A DNA stretch of 64,000 bases from sequence record OP172792, one strand, 5' to 3'. The notes below the pieces were generated by a model. The model ran no database searches and was not told the origin of the DNA. It worked only from the letters and a program-made list of their open reading frames with translations. The translations under genes and the position numbers were made by a program. Source of the stretch: Escherichia phage ECO340P2. Positions 2,973-10,015 of the stretch are shown here, in pieces (position 1 is the first letter of the stretch; every line of letters begins with the position of its first letter).

Positions 2973-3214
2973 AATACTTGTTGGTTGTGTTTGAAAATAT
3001 TTGTTTTGCAATAGGTTTGTTTGTTGTAATTTTTGTATTGACAAGCGTAATCAACGGCAGTAAAGTGAGTTTATACCGAGATGGAGAGCAGCTTTATTGC
3101 TTCTCTGGAGATTTCAAACACAGATGTATTAATAGTCAAAACGAGGAAAGCAAATATGAAAAAACTAGCCCTGATTTTAATTGGTTGTATCTTTTTAACA
3201 GCTTGCGAGGATGA
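2969..3214 (+). CDS. Possible small single-TM protein (uncertain; overlaps next gene)
   Basis: ATGA start/stop overlap with preceding ORF; N-terminal hydrophobic helix LLVVFENICFAIGLFVVIFVL; overlaps the lipoprotein start by about 59 nt, so may be spurious. Confidence 0.25.
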   Translation: MKYLLVVFENICFAIGLFVVIFVLTSVINGSKVSLYRDGEQLYCFSGDFKHRCINSQNEESKYEKTSPDFNWLYLFNSLRG

Positions 3215-3593
3215 AACAAATCCTGCACAATACCAACAACCTCCTCAACAATACGCTCAACAAGGATCTGACGGAGATACAACTATTATCAACAATGGTG
3301 GCGGCTCTAGTAGTAGCGGTGTTGGGGAGTTTGCTACAGGTATGTTGTTAGGGCATATGATGAGCGGTGGTAGTAATCGTGGTGGCGGAGATTATAACGA
3401 TAACAGAACGATTATTAATAAACATTATAACACACCTAAACCAAAGACTAATTTTTATGGTAAACCTAAACAAGAGACAAAAACTTATGAAAAGCCGAGA
3501 CAAACTTTTAAAACAAATAGTAGCTATACAACTCGTAAATCTTACAGTAGCCCTTTAAGTAAAAAGAGTTCATCTCGTAGCAAGCGACGTTAA
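3156..3593 (+). CDS. Lipoprotein (signal peptide with lipobox LTAC), Q/G/S-rich, basic C-terminus
   Basis: MKKLALILIGCIFLTAC is a classic lipoprotein signal with lipobox Cys; GAGG RBS; start ATG 3156 preferred over track start 3081. Confidence 0.6.
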   Translation: MKKLALILIGCIFLTACEDETNPAQYQQPPQQYAQQGSDGDTTIINNGGGSSSSGVGEFATGMLLGHMMSGGSNRGGGDYNDNRTIINKHYNTPKPKTNFYGKPKQETKTYEKPRQTFKTNSSYTTRKSYSSPLSKKSSSRSKRR

Positions 3594-4204: not shown

Positions 4205-4795
4205 ATGTATACCGAGAGAGACTTGCAACTCTTGTGGTGGGAAGTGATGCAGGAAATAAAAGAAGATTTTCCTGTTTACTACAACATGTTACGTGAAGCA
4301 GGATATAAAGCTTGCGTTAGAAACAAAGTGAATAACTCTTTTGGTTGGTGCAACTACCGAGATAAAATTGTTGTTGTAAATTGGCACTTGCATAAGAACT
4401 CTACAAGAGATATGATCGTGGATACAATGAAGCATGAAATTGCTCATGCTATTGATGGTTGTATGGGTAAGTTTAGTAGGCACGGTGCTCATTGGCAAAA
4501 ACTGGCAGCAGAATTAGGGGCTAATCCTAAAGCCACTTCCAAAGAGCCGTTGAACCACGAATATAAATATGTTCTTGTTCTGGTAGATAGGTTTGCGACA
4601 AGGTGTGTTAGAGGTTATAATCGTAAACCTAATCGCATGTACCCAGGTAAGCAACCTAATATGTGGTTGAAATCAGATAAAGAAGGGACCGAAGGAAAAT
4701 TATGGTTGTATAAATGGGACGATTGGGTTAAAGTAGCTAAAGAGTACGGTGTTTCACCATATATAAGAGATGCAGAAGAGGAGAATGAAGAATGA
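4205..4795 (+). CDS. HExxH zinc-metallopeptidase-like protein (SprT/Wss1-like)
   Basis: Motif MKHEIAHAIDGCMGKFSRHGAHW gives HExxH plus a downstream His; family assignment tentative. Confidence 0.5.
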   Translation: MYTERDLQLLWWEVMQEIKEDFPVYYNMLREAGYKACVRNKVNNSFGWCNYRDKIVVVNWHLHKNSTRDMIVDTMKHEIAHAIDGCMGKFSRHGAHWQKLAAELGANPKATSKEPLNHEYKYVLVLVDRFATRCVRGYNRKPNRMYPGKQPNMWLKSDKEGTEGKLWLYKWDDWVKVAKEYGVSPYIRDAEEENEE

Positions 4796-5904
4796 CAAGT
4801 CCATTTTTAAAAGCAGCTACTGGTGGTCAGAAGAAGTCTGAAATGAGTGTATTCGCTGCAACAACAGATGCAAGTAAATCTGTATTCGCGCCAAGCGTGT
4901 TAGATGCCAGTCCTGTTTATGCACCAGCCGCACCGCAAGAAGTCCCAGTTTTGCCTTCTATGACCCGACAAGAGATCGAAGAGATTGGGGCAGAGGCAGG
5001 AACAACCTTGCGTTCCTTGAATGCCGAGGTATTAAAACATCAACGTAGTAATCAAGGCGATCAGATGAGTGAACGACTCACAGCTTTGATTAAACAGGCA
5101 AAACAACTTGATCCAAACTCTATTAAACAAAGCAAGGGTATTACTAAACTCATTAAAAAGGTCATGGGTATGAAAGAAGACCTGTTCGGGGAGTTTGATA
5201 ATGTTAATAACCGTATTGAAGAGTTAGTAAAGAACCTTCAAATGGATATTCGCAAAGAAGAAGATTCCTTAGTATATCTTGAAAAACTACATCAAGCTAT
5301 TGGACAATATGCTGCAAGTTTGAACCGAGATATGCAGCTTCTAACAGCAACCTATGAAAAAGAAGAGCAAGCTTTGGCTGCTCTTCCAGAAGATGCAGTA
5401 GAACAGCGACAAGTGATCCGAGATACTTTGGATCTTCTGGAGATTCGTATTGCGGATTTAAAAGCATTGCGCCTACTGTGTGTCCAAATGGGACCACGTG
5501 TACAAGGTATGCAAAAAGTTTCTGCAAGCTTAATGCGATCTGCGCGTAACATAGTAAATAATGTTATCCCTGCTTACTCTGCTAACTTCTCAATGTATAT
5601 TGAGAGCTTACGTCAAATGAAAGCCGCAGAAACACAGAATAACGTTCTTGATGAATTTAACCTGGCAATTAAATTAGGTAGTGATTTGGCTACACAAAAT
5701 CAGATTGAAGCCGCAGCATTGGCTAACCGTCAAGTGTTAGATATTGATACTCTGCGACACGATCAGGAAAACTTAGTTAAAATGCTGGAAGAAACAAATC
5801 GCATCAATACAGAAGCCCGTGCTGCTCGTGTTGATTATATTAATGAAGTTCAATCTCTGGAAGACGGGATGGTAGCTGCTGTAAAACGAGGACTTGGTAA
5901 ATGA
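4792..5904 (+). CDS. TelA-like (toxic anion resistance family) coiled-coil protein, tentative
   Basis: About 370 aa, disordered N-terminus then long coiled-coil-prone helices; size, composition and position between terC and terD fit TelA/KlaA. No diagnostic motif verified. Confidence 0.4.
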   Translation: MTSPFLKAATGGQKKSEMSVFAATTDASKSVFAPSVLDASPVYAPAAPQEVPVLPSMTRQEIEEIGAEAGTTLRSLNAEVLKHQRSNQGDQMSERLTALIKQAKQLDPNSIKQSKGITKLIKKVMGMKEDLFGEFDNVNNRIEELVKNLQMDIRKEEDSLVYLEKLHQAIGQYAASLNRDMQLLTATYEKEEQALAALPEDAVEQRQVIRDTLDLLEIRIADLKALRLLCVQMGPRVQGMQKVSASLMRSARNIVNNVIPAYSANFSMYIESLRQMKAAETQNNVLDEFNLAIKLGSDLATQNQIEAAALANRQVLDIDTLRHDQENLVKMLEETNRINTEARAARVDYINEVQSLEDGMVAAVKRGLGK

Positions 5905-6095
5905 GAATCCGTGTTTATATGATTGATGATAGCTTTGGTGTCCGTTATGATGACGAAAAACGATTCGCGCCGATTAGCGGCATACATCCCCTAAGTGTTT
6001 TGGCAGCTTGTCGTGATAAATATCTCTATGAAGCTTGTAATCATTTTGGTTTTGAGCTTCTTTCAGATGTAGAGTTTAATGAGGAGGAAGGATGA
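5901..6095 (+). CDS. Small acidic hypothetical protein
   Basis: ORF track; ATGA overlap with upstream gene; acidic C-terminus. Confidence 0.4.
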   Translation: MRIRVYMIDDSFGVRYDDEKRFAPISGIHPLSVLAACRDKYLYEACNHFGFELLSDVEFNEEEG

Positions 6096-6265
6096 AAATA
6101 TTACGCGTGAATATTGAAACCGCTTGGTGCGGATGTAATGAGGTTGTGGATATTGAAATTGAAGATGATATGTCTAAAGAGGATATAGAAGATCTTGCAC
6201 ACGAAACCTTTCAGGACTATTGTAGCTATGGGTTCCATATTTTAGAGGAGGAAGAAGATGTATAA
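6092..6265 (+). CDS. Small acidic hypothetical protein (57 aa, not in ORF track)
   Basis: ATG 6092 preceded by GAGGAGGAAGG; read by hand to stop at 6263-6265; very acidic. Confidence 0.3.
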   Translation: MKILRVNIETAWCGCNEVVDIEIEDDMSKEDIEDLAHETFQDYCSYGFHILEEEEDV

Positions 6266-6656
6266 TCCAACAGGTATTCTTTTAAAACTCACAGTAACAG
6301 ATCCTACTCTTTTCACCAAGTTAGTCAGTGGTGAAGTCTATGAAGTAATGAAAGATGACGACGGTTGGTGTTATCTTTGTGGCTACTACCTCTGTGATGC
6401 AGAAGAGTTAGAATCCATTACAACTAAAGGTTTTTATGAAGAACCAGGCTTCCGTGTGGAAACTACACAGAAACCTGATACCATTACGTTGACTCGACAG
6501 GAACTGATCACAATCATTGAAGATGCTTTTATTGATGGTTGGAATACACAAGATAATGATTGGGGTGGACCTGAAGCTTTTCTAGAACATCATAAAGCTT
6601 ACGGAGAATTTTGTGAAACCACTGTAGCTCTTGATAATCTGAAGGAGGGTTTGTAA
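6258..6656 (+). CDS. Acidic hypothetical protein
   Basis: ORF track; GAGGAGGAAGAAG RBS; strongly D/E-rich. Confidence 0.5.
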   Translation: MYNPTGILLKLTVTDPTLFTKLVSGEVYEVMKDDDGWCYLCGYYLCDAEELESITTKGFYEEPGFRVETTQKPDTITLTRQELITIIEDAFIDGWNTQDNDWGGPEAFLEHHKAYGEFCETTVALDNLKEGL

Positions 6657-7219
6657 TGGGTTGTTTTAGCTTTTTGTGTAAGGAATCGGGCAAAGCTGCC
6701 CTTTCTACTTCTTTCGACGGATCGCCTTGCTATCTCTTTCTTTTGAAAGATGGTGTTGTTATTGAAGAGATGTATGGCAACTACGATAGTTATGGTTGTG
6801 TTTTCTCTGGAAAGGAGGACGAAAATGGCGTTCGTGAACGGTTTGATTGGGTTATGGATTGGAGTAAGGTTTGTGATTTGATGCATTCCTCAAATCCAAG
6901 GGACGGTATCGCTATGGTGCTGGAAGAGTACTTTACAGGTGAAATCCCTACAGAACAATCTGACAGAGATCCTAACCAAGGTTGGGGTGATGGTGAAGAA
7001 GATCCAGATTGTTTTTTCAGCACAGAAAAGAATAAGTTTAAACGTGTTGACAACCCTTATCACAAAGTGCATAATACTCTCATTGAAACAGAAGATGACA
7101 AGATGGAAATTGAAGAAGATGATCCTCTTGTAACACTTCCTATAAGCGAGTTACAAAAGATTACTAAAGAAGCTTACGATTTGGGCTTCAAAATTGGTAG
7201 AGGAGGTATGCGTGTTTAG
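6656..7219 (+). CDS. Hypothetical protein with acidic C-terminal half
   Basis: ORF track; GGAGGG RBS; several Cys pairs; no recognisable family. Confidence 0.5.
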   Translation: MGCFSFLCKESGKAALSTSFDGSPCYLFLLKDGVVIEEMYGNYDSYGCVFSGKEDENGVRERFDWVMDWSKVCDLMHSSNPRDGIAMVLEEYFTGEIPTEQSDRDPNQGWGDGEEDPDCFFSTEKNKFKRVDNPYHKVHNTLIETEDDKMEIEEDDPLVTLPISELQKITKEAYDLGFKIGRGGMRV

Positions 7220-7484
7220 ATTCAATATTCAAGAAGAAAAGTATAAGGATTTACCTGTTCCTTTCGAAGATCTTGACGTAGGGGATACATTCATGTATTA
7301 TGCTGCCTATGAAGATGCAGGGTTGGATACTTACATTAATTTGGTGTTCATTAAAAGTTCTCCAAACAGCGCAATCTGCATCAGTGGATCGCAACGAGGT
7401 TATACACATTGTATCCCGCCAGATACAAATATGGTGGAAGTAGATTTAGAAGTTACCAATATCACACTTAAGAAGGAGAAATAA
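7212..7484 (+). CDS. Small protein, paralog A of a duplicated pair (partner of the TerD-headed vWA gene)
   Basis: GTG 7212 preceded by GGAGG; motifs DLDVGDTFMYYAAYEDAGLD and EVDLEVTNITLKK are shared with ORF 8506..8775. Confidence 0.5.
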   Translation: MFRFNIQEEKYKDLPVPFEDLDVGDTFMYYAAYEDAGLDTYINLVFIKSSPNSAICISGSQRGYTHCIPPDTNMVEVDLEVTNITLKKEK

Positions 7485-7485
7485 T

Positions 7486-8280
7486 ATGTCCGAGAAAATC
7501 AGCCTGAAAAAACGTCAAGAAAACCTTGCTTTCTCTCTGAAAAAGAATAAGAACCTGAATGAAGGTAAGATTGTTCTTCGTGTAGCATGTGCTCTAGATA
7601 TTTCTGGTAGTATGCATGGTCTATATGCTCGTGGAGTAGTGAGTGATTTTGTAGGTAAACTGCTCCCTTTTGGTATGCTGTTCGACGATAATGAACAAAT
7701 TGATATGTGGGCCTTCAATACAAGTTCTCAAGAGCTTACTCCAGCAACAGCAGACGTTTACGATGATTATGTTGGTAAATGTATGCGTAATGTTCGTATC
7801 GGAGGTGGAACAAATTACGCCCCTGTAATGGCAGATATCTACGATGAGTATTTTGGCACTGTTACCAAATATATTACCACTAAACAAGTGGTACAAGAGG
7901 AGGCTCCAAAGAAAGGCTTCTTTAATCGTCTGCTTGGTAAAACTGAAACAGTATCTGTAGAGCGTGAAAAGGTTGTAGCTGTATCTGAACCAGGTGCTGA
8001 CGTTACCCCTGGTGTTGTATTCTTCCAGACGGATGGTGAGAATGGTGATCCTAGTGCTGTTCGTCGTCTTATTGAAGAGAATAAGAATAAACCTATTTAT
8101 TGGTTCATGGTTGGCGTCGGTAATGAGAAGTTTGGCTTCCTGAAAGAACTGGCAAATGCTTATGATAATGTTGGTTTTATTGGCATTAAAGATTTAGACT
8201 TGACAGATTCAGAGCTTTATGACAAACTCTTATCTGAAGAGTTCGGAGAGTGGGTTGTTAAAGTAGGTGCTAAAAAATGA
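7486..8280 (+). CDS. vWA (MIDAS) protein with TerD-like N-terminal head; TerF/TerY-like
   Basis: N-terminus MSEKISLKK...FSLKK mimics the TerD start; LRVACALDISGSM is a vWA MIDAS DxSxS motif. Confidence 0.65.
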   Translation: MSEKISLKKRQENLAFSLKKNKNLNEGKIVLRVACALDISGSMHGLYARGVVSDFVGKLLPFGMLFDDNEQIDMWAFNTSSQELTPATADVYDDYVGKCMRNVRIGGGTNYAPVMADIYDEYFGTVTKYITTKQVVQEEAPKKGFFNRLLGKTETVSVEREKVVAVSEPGADVTPGVVFFQTDGENGDPSAVRRLIEENKNKPIYWFMVGVGNEKFGFLKELANAYDNVGFIGIKDLDLTDSELYDKLLSEEFGEWVVKVGAKK

Positions 8281-8525
8281 TCGACGAGCTTGCCTCTCAA
8301 GTCGTAGAAAATTATTGGCGCGAGAGAGAAGCTTTCATTATGCGCAGTCTCAAAGAATATTTCATTGGGACTGTGCGGATGGAAGATATTGTAAGTAGAG
8401 TAGAGATTCATGTATGGCCTGATTATGAAGAATGGGTTGACAAAGAAAATGAAAATGCTATAATTCTTCGTATATACAAACCGGAGATAACATTAGGAGG
8501 AAGAAGTGTTAAACTTCGAAATTGA
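8277..8525 (+). CDS. Hypothetical protein
   Basis: ORF track; ATGA overlap with upstream gene. Confidence 0.4.
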   Translation: MIDELASQVVENYWREREAFIMRSLKEYFIGTVRMEDIVSRVEIHVWPDYEEWVDKENENAIILRIYKPEITLGGRSVKLRN

Positions 8526-8775
8526 TGAGCAAAAAATAAATAAACGATGCCTTACCATTAAAGATTTGGATGTAGGAGATACTTTCGTCTATGAAAATGC
8601 ATTTGACGAAAATGGTTTAGACCTTAGTGAAGTCATTGTTTATTTAAAAGTAGATGATGGGGAAAATGATTATTCTGCTGTAGAATTAAACCATCATGCA
8701 CAATTAGTAGCAATCCAAAACACATCTAAGCTTTTGGAAGTAGAATTGACTGTAACTGGTATTACACTTAAATAA
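8506..8775 (+). CDS. Small protein, paralog B of the duplicated pair (partner of terD)
   Basis: GTG 8506 preceded by AGGAGG; shares DLDVGDTF..Y and L.VELTVTGITLK motifs with ORF 7212..7484. Confidence 0.5.
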   Translation: MLNFEIDEQKINKRCLTIKDLDVGDTFVYENAFDENGLDLSEVIVYLKVDDGENDYSAVELNHHAQLVAIQNTSKLLEVELTVTGITLK

Positions 8776-8790
8776 TAGAGGAGACAAAAG

Positions 8791-9393
8791 ATGACTGATA
8801 AAATTTCCCTGAAAAAAGGCTCTAGCGAAAAAATTTCCCTGAAGAAAGTTGCTCCGGCTCTGAAAGAACTGCGCCTGGAATTCTCTTGGAAATCTGATTC
8901 TAAACTGGATCTGGATGTAAGTGCACTGGTTTGTCGTCATAATGCCGCTGGCAATCCTGAAATGCTGTCTGCACGTCATCTGGTTTGCTATGCTAACAAG
9001 TTTGATCCTGAACGTTCTACCTTTGCTGGTGACGATGTTCGTGATGGGACTGGCAGCATGGAGCAGATTGATATTACTCTGGCTAAAATCTCTCCCGATG
9101 CACAAGAGATTGCCTTTGTTCTGACCATTGATGATGATACAGGTCTGAAACGTTTTGGTCATGCTTCTGAAGGTATGCTTAAAATCTTCGACTCCGAGTG
9201 TAATGTGGAAATTCTGGATTTTGACTTCCTGGCTCCTGAAGTAGCTGGCAACACAATCTGCCACGTGGCTTCCTTGGTTCGTGAAGATGGTGAATGGAAG
9301 CTGAAAGCATATGGTGTAGGTAAAGCTGGTCTGGATATTTGTGATGTGGTGATGGCCTTCGGTGGTAAAAAAGAATGGTATGAATGTCCATAA
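8791..9393 (+). CDS. terD: TerD-family protein
   Basis: Collinear with remembered enterobacterial TerD: ISLKKGSSEKISLKK, LDLDVSALVC, GDDVRDGTGS..IDITL, FVLTIDD and GEWKLKAYGVGKAG all match. Confidence 0.9.
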   Translation: MTDKISLKKGSSEKISLKKVAPALKELRLEFSWKSDSKLDLDVSALVCRHNAAGNPEMLSARHLVCYANKFDPERSTFAGDDVRDGTGSMEQIDITLAKISPDAQEIAFVLTIDDDTGLKRFGHASEGMLKIFDSECNVEILDFDFLAPEVAGNTICHVASLVREDGEWKLKAYGVGKAGLDICDVVMAFGGKKEWYECP

Positions 9394-9412
9394 TAATTAA
9401 CAAATGATTTTG

Positions 9413-9434
9413 AGGGGGGAGAAATCCCCCTCTT
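9413..9434 (+). terminator. GC-rich hairpin after terD (possible terminator, short U-tract)
   Basis: GAGGGGG-AGAAAT-CCCCCTC followed by TT only. Confidence 0.4.
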
Positions 9435-9461
9435 GCAATAAAGCCTCTATCGTGTTATACT
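9433..9461 (+). promoter_or_regulatory. Sigma70-type promoter (TTGCAA-N17-TATACT) upstream of the cell-wall hydrolase gene
   Basis: -35 TTGCAA 9433-9438, 17-nt spacer, -10 TATACT 9456-9461. Confidence 0.55.
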
Positions 9462-9493
9462 AGAAGTTCGTTAACTTAAAAAGGAGGCAAAAT

Positions 9494-10015
9494 TTGCTGA
9501 TAAAAAACTTTGTAACAGTTGCGTTACTATCCTTAACTGCTTTTACATTTACACCTGTTGTGGCGAAAGCCGAAGCTGCAAACGTAAAAACCGCTAAAGT
9601 AGTTCACAAATGTACAAAGCAATATAATGATAAAATTCTATTAGCTTGTGCAATTTACGCAGAAGGTCGCGGTCTGGGTAAAAAAGGAATGAATGCCGTT
9701 GGGAATGTGGTAATCAATAGAAGAAATGATGCCTACTTTCCTAACACAGTCAGAGGAGTCTTGTTCCAGAAAGGACAATTTTCATATGCGAAAACTTTTA
9801 ACGTAACAGAGAAAGATAAGTGGCAGGAAGCAAAAGCAATAGCGGAGCGTTTACTTTATTTAGAGAAACATTTTCCTGAATTGCGATCTGTTTTAGATGT
9901 TACTAAAGGTGCTCTATACTTCAAGAAACGGAATATAAGGACACACTGGGAACGCGATATGCGTCTTGTTTATCGAGATAAAGTGCATGGTTTCTATCTA
10001 CCAAAGGAGAGTTAA
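9494..10015 (+). CDS. Secreted cell-wall hydrolase (SleB/CwlJ-type) with N-terminal signal peptide
   Basis: TTG start after AAAGGAGG; signal-like N-terminus; core CAIYAEGRGLGKKGMNAVGNVVINRRNDAYFPNTVRGVLFQKGQFS matches the SleB-type fold; own promoter upstream. Confidence 0.75.
   Translation: MLIKNFVTVALLSLTAFTFTPVVAKAEAANVKTAKVVHKCTKQYNDKILLACAIYAEGRGLGKKGMNAVGNVVINRRNDAYFPNTVRGVLFQKGQFSYAKTFNVTEKDKWQEAKAIAERLLYLEKHFPELRSVLDVTKGALYFKKRNIRTHWERDMRLVYRDKVHGFYLPKES

Follow-up and report, generated by a model that had tools for sequence, protein, structure and literature searches.

Four acidic genes between TelA-like and TerD genes

The 64,000-nucleotide stretch of the Escherichia phage ECO340P2 genome analysed here (record OP172792; hereafter the window) carries a set of Ter-like genes with a run of four small genes lying inside it, in the replication and nucleotide-metabolism arm of Phapecoctavirus. 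These four genes are labelled A (5901-6095), B (6092-6265), C (6258-6656) and D (6656-7219). The gene order of the region is TerC ... SprT-like, TelA, A, B, C, D, E, vWA/TerF, G, H, TerD, and the location of the run between a TelA-like gene and a TerD cassette, as given in the first-pass annotation, is confirmed by Pfam matches to the flanking genes. The features of the region are:

1605-2579, + strand: TerC-family membrane protein, which completes the phage Ter set (Pfam TerC, 3.4e-40)
4792-5904, + strand: TelA-like gene (Pfam TelA, 7.2e-33)
5901-6095, + strand: A, 64-aa acidic protein, phrog_24000 (open reading frame with SD sequence; phrog_24000 match 2.8e-30)
6092-6265, + strand: B, 57-aa very acidic mini-protein, phrog_1997, near-threshold DUF7167 (open reading frame with SD sequence)
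6258-6455, + strand: N-terminal half of C (residues 1-66), a sporadic extra domain (29 phage records)
6456-6656, + strand: C-terminal half of C (residues 67-132), an acidic domain of about 65 aa, phrog_14200 (3.9e-35)
6656-7066, + strand: core of D (residues 1-137), phrog_14928 (motifs MG(C)FSxxC, GxYxxYG, W...W and SxxDPxQG)
7047-7075, + strand: near-consensus sigma-70 promoter-like site, TTGACA-17-CATAAT, inside D and 5' of E and the vWA gene (11/12 consensus matches)
7067-7219, + strand: tail of D (residues 138-187), a lineage-specific acidic extension (net charge -6; one predicted helix, 163-175)
7212-7484, + strand: E, 90 aa, phrog_11278, a paralogue of H, directly 5' of the vWA gene (GTG start with SD sequence)
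7486-8280, + strand: vWA-TerF-like gene (Pfam, 1.3e-37)
8791-9393, + strand: TerD gene (Pfam, 9.2e-28)

All four open reading frames drawn in the earlier annotation are present on the plus strand, and an SD sequence of the GAGG/GGAG type lies 5' of each ATG. ATGA overlaps join TelA to A (which starts directly after TelA), A to B and C to D, and B and C overlap by 8 nt; the SD sites together with these overlapping starts and stops indicate translational coupling. Exact matches to the four proteins are ECO340P2_00081-84, and the genes are annotated as CDSs in more than 60 Phapecoctavirus genomes, each time as 'hypothetical protein'. With A-D already catalogued in this way in many genomes and no sign of anti-restriction activity, the finding is an ordinary one as it stands. 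Pairwise dN/dS against relatives ranges from 0.04 to 0.37 overall, and such low values, the mark of purifying selection, argue that these are real coding genes. To judge from their sequences, A-D are expressed-looking genes under purifying selection. One might suspect non-functional filler or mis-annotated frames, their acidity being a matter of composition only, as A-D are annotated merely as hypothetical proteins and A is truncated in one isolate (a frameshift in phage KKP 3954). The chance of this is negligible, however, being already contradicted by the coding evidence (purifying selection, SD sites and coupled starts) and by the deep conservation of B and D far beyond the Phapecoctavirus lineage.

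The segment from A to E is a recombination mosaic, with dS values of 0.4-1.7 compared with 0.05-0.18 in its flanks. Hidden paralogy was sought among A, B, both halves of C, E/H and G, and every hhalign probability was below 3 %; A-D also fall into different PHROGs. On these comparisons, A, B, C and D are four unrelated families.

The run had been described as strongly D/E-rich, and indeed no other gene run of the window is as acidic (P about 0.003-0.008 by permutation). D+E content is 20.3 % in A, 31.6 % in B, 19.7 % in C and 20.9 % in D, against a window median of 12.6 %, and the net charges are -6, -15, -17 and -19, respectively. The calculation of pI and charge that had been suggested as a check gives pI values of 4.63 (A), <=4.05 (B, 4.05 being the floor of the Biopython pI solver), 4.15 (C) and 4.42 (D), against a window median of 5.3. 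Four of the seven most acidic ORFs in the window (n=74) are the consecutive genes A-D. When gene order is permuted, a run of four at the mean D+E content of A-D is obtained with P=0.008, one at their net charge with P=0.005, and one in which all four members have a D+E fraction >=0.197 with P=0.003; confining the permutation to the plus-strand block gives P=0.01-0.05.

A, C and the Ter-like module

The TerC, TelA, vWA/TerF and TerD genes of the region are the same as those of the abbreviated phage Ter operons described in virulent phage (Iyer et al. 2021; Klebsiella phage phiKp34; PMC7824862, PMC8386662). A and the C-terminal domain of C are constant members of this cluster, but A-D differ from the known Ter domains (no profile match to TerB, TerC, TerD, TelA or vWA/TerF/TerY in Pfam or NCBIfam), B and D also occur outside Ter contexts, and the role of phage Ter genes is itself a hypothesis only.

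A is found in Phapecoctavirus only. The proteins that follow TelA in PaulScherrer (77 aa) and Tr1 (80 aa) are its homologues by position, with weak similarity. The allele carried by ECO340P2 forms a cluster of one: its top identity to any record is at most 69 %, while its flanks reach 96-99 %. With a dN/dS of 0.37, A is by these sequence measures a hypervariable protein.

C (132 aa) consists of two halves with different histories. Its N-terminal half has no family match in Pfam or PHROGs, is present in just 29 phage records and is missing in ECO340P1, KKP 3954, 3A1, PaulScherrer and L016, where the gene encodes the C-terminal domain alone. The C-terminal domain was found in all the Ter-bearing relatives examined (Phapecoctavirus, Justusliebigvirus, Citrobacter phage Tr1 and the metagenomic L016), with 66 % identity to its counterpart in L016 compared with 41 % for TelA and 47 % for TerD, and its family comprises only 8 clusters among 5.8 billion proteins. 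The dN/dS of C is 0.08-0.11, rising to 0.37 against PaulScherrer, the most distant relative, with which only a short stretch can be aligned. This distribution points to C being a fusion of a sporadic N-terminal domain and a conserved domain that travels with the Ter genes.

The order TelA, A-like gene, C-terminal domain of C, D, E, vWA, TerD is kept across several genera. Occurrence limited to, and syntenic with, TelA-vWA-TerD clusters is seen for A and the C-terminal domain of C, but not for B and D. In the genomes compared, the former two are confined to this phage subfamily and always lie between TelA and vWA/TerD, whereas B and D behave as independently mobile families, occurring in many unrelated phages without Ter genes. 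We propose to group A and the C-terminal domain of C as 'Ter-module accessory proteins', a grouping of our own rather than an established family; they would offer a handle on the role of Ter genes in virulent phages. Alternatively, the constant position of A and C beside the Ter genes could be due simply to an insertion site that is permissive in one phage lineage.

Two parallel units can be seen in the module, each made up of a promoter-like site, a phrog_11278 paralogue and a Ter gene. The promoter-like site at 7047-7075 overlaps the D codons for VDNPYHKVHN; both its hexamers are invariant in Phapecoctavirus and Justusliebigvirus, with synonymous changes in the spacer, and there are just two sites of this kind in the first 24 kb. 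Another promoter-like site lies at 8437-8464. These parallel units, the embedding and translational coupling of the genes between TelA and vWA/TerD, the conservation of gene order from TelA to TerD in several genera and the role in inter-phage competition proposed for phage Ter operons (PMC7824862) would all suit a reading in which A-D, and also E, G and H, belong to a phage Ter-like complex as its dedicated subunits or regulators, engaged in membrane remodelling or superinfection exclusion. Quite speculatively, their carboxylate-rich surfaces might handle divalent cations or serve as ligands of the vWA MIDAS. TerD binds Ca2+. We nevertheless regard such a dedicated complex as unlikely: the Ter set occurs without D or E in Citrobacter phage Tr1 and without B in Justusliebigvirus, many phages carry B and D in the absence of Ter genes, and none of A-D resembles a known Ter-associated domain.

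The mini-protein B and the conserved protein D

B matches phrog_1997 from end to end (8.5e-25) and scores 23.5 bits against DUF7167 (PF23768; gathering cut-off 24.4; E 5.8e-5), in an alignment covering 49 of its 57 residues and profile positions 4-60 of 60. A relative, P0138, which is 82 % identical to B, carries a precomputed PF23768 hit. DUF7167 and phrog_1997, the nearest named families, are made up of uncharacterised small phage proteins. The dN/dS of B is 0.04-0.07, and its charge and six acidic positions are kept in four distantly related lineages of phages, which range from coliphages to those of Enterococcus, in a family that spans phages of Gram-negative and Gram-positive hosts and whose members are located in early or accessory regions (Jerseyvirus, Kochikohdavirus, Stx phages). 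The predicted structure is a compact beta-beta-alpha-beta domain (pLDDT 70) with a conserved acidic helix stripe at residues 30/31/34/38, and the protein ends in an acidic tail.

An assignment of B to the lambda exo-xis ORFs (orf60a, orf61, orf63, ea8.5) was rejected for want of similarity, and an HMM of the B family found nothing in lambda Gam or the exo-xis ORFs. The 532-aa members of the 90 % cluster containing B proved to be an unrelated histidine kinase, placed there by a clustering artefact. Plasmid homologues, sought with leading-region anti-defence islands in mind, amounted to 7 weak and uninformative matches for B; the same search for D gave 1, equally weak and uninformative.

D (187 aa) matches phrog_14928 over residues 1-187 (2.7e-124), with the family motifs present and invariant. 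The motif set is anchored at residue 1, where the N-terminal MG.FS..C is invariant; the tail is absent or different in most family members, which have 130-145 aa. The family is virus-only, has no Pfam counterpart and is conserved at 45-65 % identity among hundreds of metagenomic phages, sampled from gut, food and marine sources; the dN/dS of D is 0.05-0.14. The structural model of D is confident (pLDDT 89) and has no relative among PDB and BFVD structures. What is conserved in D is the set of Cys, aromatic and Gly motifs rather than acidity, a pattern that looks unlike that of a fast-evolving mimic. The earlier description of the run as having no recognisable enzymatic motifs stands insofar as the databases searched returned no match, but it understates the sharply conserved motif set of D.

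In distant phages D adjoins replication or RNA-repair genes, never Ter genes. When the neighbours of D at 64 loci were clustered, the recurrent ones (GP88, an M48/M78-like peptidase with a sub-threshold score, and DUF7717) reflected lineage synteny; they are mostly unannotated and none occurs in the window. The long members of the D family contain a single domain fusion, an uninformative TPR tail.

Comparison with anti-restriction proteins and reading of the run

None of A-D has a Pfam family above threshold, and none matches the Ocr family (Pfam-A, E<=1; NCBIfam) or the ArdA/KlcA/Gam families (Pfam, NCBIfam and PHROGs annotation). Sequence comparison with the PDB gave nothing significant (A, C and D were compared as single sequences, and B and D through their family profiles), and no PADLOC profile matched A-D, E, G or H at E<=0.1. 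Atd1, a known Phapecoctavirus anti-defence gene whose product we take to be a MazG-like enzyme, was rejected as an identity for any of A-D, there being no MazG match to them in Pfam.

A parallel is offered by TifA (Orf65 of Enterococcus phage phi47), which inhibits type IV restriction enzymes by binding the nucleases directly and is about 21 % acidic, its authors declining the label of DNA mimic (PMC11322646). By this precedent, a small phage protein of about 21 % acidic residues need not be a DNA mimic to inhibit restriction enzymes. TifA resembles A, C and D in being small and about 21 % acidic; its predicted fold is SH3-like, whereas that predicted for B is beta-beta-alpha-beta and D has a larger fold without a detected relative. 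None of A-D could be identified as TifA: in phi47 (genome 57 kb, of which the first 50 kb were searched) there was no significant match to A, B, either half of C or E/H by tblastn or family HMM, or to D by tblastn.

Net charge per residue is -0.094 in A, -0.263 in B, -0.129 in C and -0.102 in D, compared with -0.239 for T7 Ocr (computed from NC_001604). A, C and D, with 0.09-0.13 net negative charges per residue against 0.24, thus carry less than half the charge density of Ocr (both being derived from sequence). B matches Ocr in this respect, as it does in acidic fraction (31.6 % compared with 29.1 %), in the acidic tail at its end and in its location in a non-structural region. It differs in lacking any sequence match, in being half the size and in its predicted beta-beta-alpha-beta fold; Ocr is an elongated helical dimer. 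The Ocr-like charge density of B and its acidic stripe, conserved across phages, make it the sole credible candidate among the four for a DNA-mimic-type inhibitor.

The first-pass annotation had regarded the four as candidate DNA mimics or host-takeover factors. Were all of them mimics or other anti-restriction proteins, they would titrate type I R-M, BREX or similar systems early in infection, and an 'early' timing of the run is plausible. Such a role is in keeping with the acidity of all four and their non-random clustering, with the non-structural arm and the sigma-70-type promoter-like sites nearby, and with the variable mosaic of A-E, as is often found in counter-defence islands. It is nevertheless very improbable for the four together, given the low charge density of A, C and D, the lack of matches to Ocr, ArdA or Gam in the databases and of a TifA homologue in the 50 kb of phi47, and dN/dS values well below 1. 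The conservation of D is not that of a charge mimic, its 45-65 % identity across unrelated phages being too high for an arms-race protein. Finally, phi92-like phages, reported to be 'exceptionally susceptible' to RM of types I, II and III (PMC8594841), possess D, E, an A-like protein and the C-terminal domain of C, but not B. The mimic interpretation holds in part only, because the four proteins are unrelated and heterogeneous: a generic role as accessory, host-takeover or inhibitor proteins is reasonable, and a mimic-type role suits B (Ocr-level charge, six conserved acidic positions) but not A, C and D, given also the motifs of D and the strict synteny of A and the C-terminal half of C with the Ter genes.

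It therefore seems, with a probability that we put at about 0.5, that A-D form a translationally coupled cassette within an abbreviated Ter-like module, encoding small acidic accessory proteins unrelated to one another rather than a set of DNA mimics. Small acidic proteins of phages have proved to be a source of inhibitors that act on restriction, BREX, RecBCD, RNA polymerase and SMC complexes. In such a cassette, B might be a direct electrostatic inhibitor whose acidic helix stripe and tail occupy the nucleic-acid-binding surface of a host protein, for example a nuclease of restriction or defence or some other protein that binds DNA or RNA, in a mode that may be likened to Ocr, Gp2-type and TifA-type proteins. 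D could be an enzyme or a small-ligand- or target-binding module in which acidity is incidental, with a putative site formed by the invariant Cys8, at the extreme N-terminus, and Ser5, Tyr43, Tyr46, Ser102, Asp105 and Gln108. A and the C-terminal domain of C would be lineage-specific partners or adaptors of the TelA/vWA/TerD machinery, which phages, as Aravind and colleagues have reportedly proposed, deploy against superinfecting phages or membrane stress.

For B, one could also think of a protein that blocks a host protein without acting as a nucleic-acid mimic or binding DNA, such as an antitoxin-like inhibitor of a defence RNase or toxin; T4 Dmd blocks RnlA/LsoA. We consider this distinctly unlikely. 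B shares no sequence similarity with T4 Dmd or T7 Gp2, both small sheet-plus-helix phage inhibitors, the structural score is below significance and Gp2 is not among its top structural matches. With 57 aa, a charge at the level of Ocr and conservation in very different phages, B is a concrete and cheap test case.

A further reading, which we hold only tentatively, concerns D and B. The 137-residue core of D would be an undescribed virus-exclusive fold and enzyme family, with a catalytic or ligand-binding centre formed around Cys8 and directed at a universal bacterial target, and B a pan-phage inhibitor of the nucleic-acid-mimic type, common to phages of Gram-negative and Gram-positive hosts; if so, a universal bacterial target is what the conservation of D in hundreds of unrelated virulent phages would mean. 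D is among the best-conserved uncharacterised proteins of the window, and its activity could reveal a widespread phage function.

Four coupled acidic genes within an abbreviated Ter set

Positions 4700-9500 of the window are 96 % identical to phAPEC8-like coliphages (Phapecoctavirus, Stephanstirmvirinae). The phage carries an abbreviated Ter set (TerC, TelA, vWA/TerF, TerD) with small lineage-specific genes interspersed, and the four acidic ORFs studied here, A to D, lie inside it:

1605-2579, +, TerC-family membrane protein of the abbreviated Ter set
4205-4795, SprT-like protein
4792-5904, +, TelA, flanking A-D
5901-6095, +, A (64 aa)
6092-6265, +, B (57 aa)
6258-6656, +, C (132 aa)
6656-7219, +, D (187 aa)
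7486-8280, +, vWA-TerF-like protein, flanking A-D
8791-9393, +, TerD, flanking A-D

The first-pass annotation had described four consecutive acidic ORFs between a TelA-like gene and the TerD cassette, and we find both the run and its flanks where it placed them, with the vWA-TerF-like gene also lying between D and TerD. Aspartate plus glutamate make up 20.3 % (A), 31.6 % (B), 19.7 % (C) and 20.9 % (D) of residues (window median 12.6 %), for net charges of -6, -15, -17 and -19; pI values given as 4.05, the floor of the Biopython solver, read as 4.05 or lower. Ranked by acidity among 74 ORFs, the adjacent A-D all fall in the top seven, a run with P ~0.003-0.008 by gene-order permutation (0.01-0.05 when the + strand block alone is shuffled).

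A GAGG/GGAG Shine-Dalgarno sequence precedes each ATG, and the genes are joined by ATGA overlaps (TelA/A, A/B and C/D) or an 8-nt overlap (B/C). Comparison with relatives gives dN/dS values of 0.37 (A), 0.04-0.07 (B), 0.08-0.11 (C) and 0.05-0.14 (D); over the short part of C alignable with the phi92-like phage PaulScherrer the value is 0.37. Given these overlaps, Shine-Dalgarno sites and low dN/dS values, A-D are real, coupled genes; that the ORFs are non-functional is extremely improbable, and a frameshifted A gene is found in phage KKP 3954. The proteins are the exact sequences of ECO340P2_00081 to 00084, 'hypothetical protein' in every public source; they are thus already catalogued, two of the families standing in PHROGs or Pfam as unknowns, and belong to the small acidic phage accessory proteins.

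The block is located in the replication and nucleotide-metabolism arm, with ribonucleotide reductases and a helicase upstream and glycosyltransferases, primase, Dam and DNA polymerase downstream. No convincing terminator was found on the + strand between 2603 and 9393, and early timing of the block is plausible.

Distribution and variation of the four families

A, B, C and D fall in four different PHROGs, and profile-profile comparison gives a probability below 3 % for every pair; as judged from their sequences, they are mutually unrelated.

A is hypervariable and found only in Phapecoctavirus. The present allele is a cluster of one, at most 69 % identical to other phage records where the flanks are 96-99 % identical. 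A aligns with a small post-TelA protein in Justusliebigvirus (77 aa) and in Citrobacter phage Tr1 (80 aa), positional agreement carrying the argument because the E-values (7e-7 and 1.5e-6, hmmsearch) come from a four-sequence database.

C is a fusion. Every Ter-bearing relative examined has its C-terminal 66 residues (phrog_14200); in a metagenomic phage (L016) this domain is 66 % identical, TelA 41 % and TerD 47 %. The N-terminal half is restricted to 29 records, many Phapecoctavirus genomes have the short form only, and the whole family comprises eight clusters among 5.8 billion proteins.

Residues 1-137 of D are 45-65 % identical to metagenomic phage proteins that number in the hundreds and measure 130-145 aa (313 matches, 309 representative clusters and 57 IMG/VR loci in separate searches), in nearly all of which the domain begins at residue 1. 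Across 134 divergent representatives M1, G2, F4, S5, C8, G41, Y43, Y46, G47, W65, W69, G84, S102, D105, Q108 and G109 are conserved, C3 and H136 in nearer relatives only. Cellular genomes all but lack the family (185,579 species yielded three MAG contigs), as do the plasmids searched, and its only cultured carriers are Stephanstirmvirinae phages. With no structural relative in the PDB or BFVD, this virus-only domain is the sole element of the find that could prove truly new. In distant phages its homologues adjoin replication or RNA-repair genes, never Ter genes, and no recurrent partner gene was seen beside them. In 20 of 64 metagenomic loci (L014, L024, L027-L051) a 125-aa family starting MGLDMY and containing HYWRKHPNLHGWM accompanies the D homologue, ~0.6-1 kb upstream at the loci spot-checked (L038 and L047 among them). 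No Pfam family covers it, and it does not occur in the window.

Compared with phage ECO340P1, which lacks the N-terminal half of C, dS is 0.4-1.7 in A-E (5901-7484, E being the small gene after D) and 0.05-0.18 in TelA, vWA, TerD and the small genes G and H. With dN/dS staying low, this points to a recombination mosaic among lineages rather than to positive selection. L016 has a 231-aa protein (4304-4999) inserted between the C C-terminal domain and D, and in Tr1 a 75-aa Cys-rich acidic and a 53-aa protein (2259-2486 and 2892-3053 of L019) replace B, D and E. Given such differing inserts in Ter-bearing relatives, the TelA-to-vWA interval acts as an insertion hot spot.

Anti-restriction and the probable roles of the cassette

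B alone among A-D equals T7 Ocr in charge density (-0.263 per residue; -0.239 for Ocr, computed from NC_001604). It matches phrog_1997, with Pfam DUF7167 one bit under cut-off, and has tblastn relatives in 169 phage records (Salmonella Jerseyviruses, Enterococcus Herelleviridae and Stx-converting lambdoids among them), where their genes lie with early or accessory genes. A proposed identity with a named lambda exo-xis ORF was rejected, the two being unrelated.

No match to Ocr, ArdA, Gam or any PADLOC family was found for A-D. Kinship with TifA, an acidic inhibitor of type IV restriction from phage phi47, was discarded, the first 50 kb of the 57-kb phi47 genome having no homologue. Since phi92-like phages such as PaulScherrer, reported as exceptionally sensitive to type I, II and III restriction, encode an A-like protein, the C C-terminal domain, D and E, these proteins probably do not counter the tested systems effectively; the collection (PMC8594841) was one without Phapecoctavirus and hence without B. 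The suggestion that the run encodes DNA mimics is supported for B alone, by charge and its conservation; that all four are DNA mimics is very improbable.

We favour, at a probability of about one half, a heterogeneous accessory cassette. B would inhibit a nucleic-acid-binding host protein directly, by electrostatics; Dmd-like inhibition of a target that does not bind DNA is decidedly less probable. D may be an enzyme or may bind a ligand, with the conserved N-terminal Cys8 at its centre. A and the C C-terminal domain, syntenic with TelA/vWA/TerD, could be lineage-specific companions of that machinery. To extend this to all four as Ter subunits would suit the synteny, but Tr1 keeps its Ter set without D or E, and we consider it unlikely.

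Other features of the region

Other virulent phages are known to have the same abbreviated Ter set, for which competition with other phages or stress tolerance has been proposed without experiment (PMC7824862; PMC8386662); superinfection exclusion is also a literature proposal. Just upstream of the SprT-TelA genes, ORF 3081-3593 (+) has an internal Met followed by MKKLALILIGCIFLTAC, resembling a lipoprotein signal peptide with lipobox, and then a low-complexity Gly/Ser- and Lys-rich region; its product may be a phage lipoprotein, hence a candidate exclusion factor.

Near-consensus sigma-70 promoter-like sites occur in the first 24 kb only at 7047-7075 (11/12) and 8437-8464 (12/12, with extended -10 TG), both +, inside the 3' parts of D and G. 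Just 3' of them lie, respectively, the small paralogous genes E (7212-7484) and H (8506-8775), both phrog_11278; E precedes vWA-TerF-like and H precedes TerD. The D site falls on codons of the conserved VDNPYHKVHN; its hexamers stay unchanged across two genera and its spacer has synonymous changes.

Directly 3' of TerD, a SleB-type cell-wall hydrolase (9494-10015, +; 'endolysin' in relatives) is placed in the replication arm, not with late genes. A 183-aa protein (495-1046, +) weakly matches the Macro domain (E 4.4e-4; 20.6 bits, cut-off 22), and the gene of phage tuntematon roughly matching it by coordinate offset is annotated 'phosphatase'.
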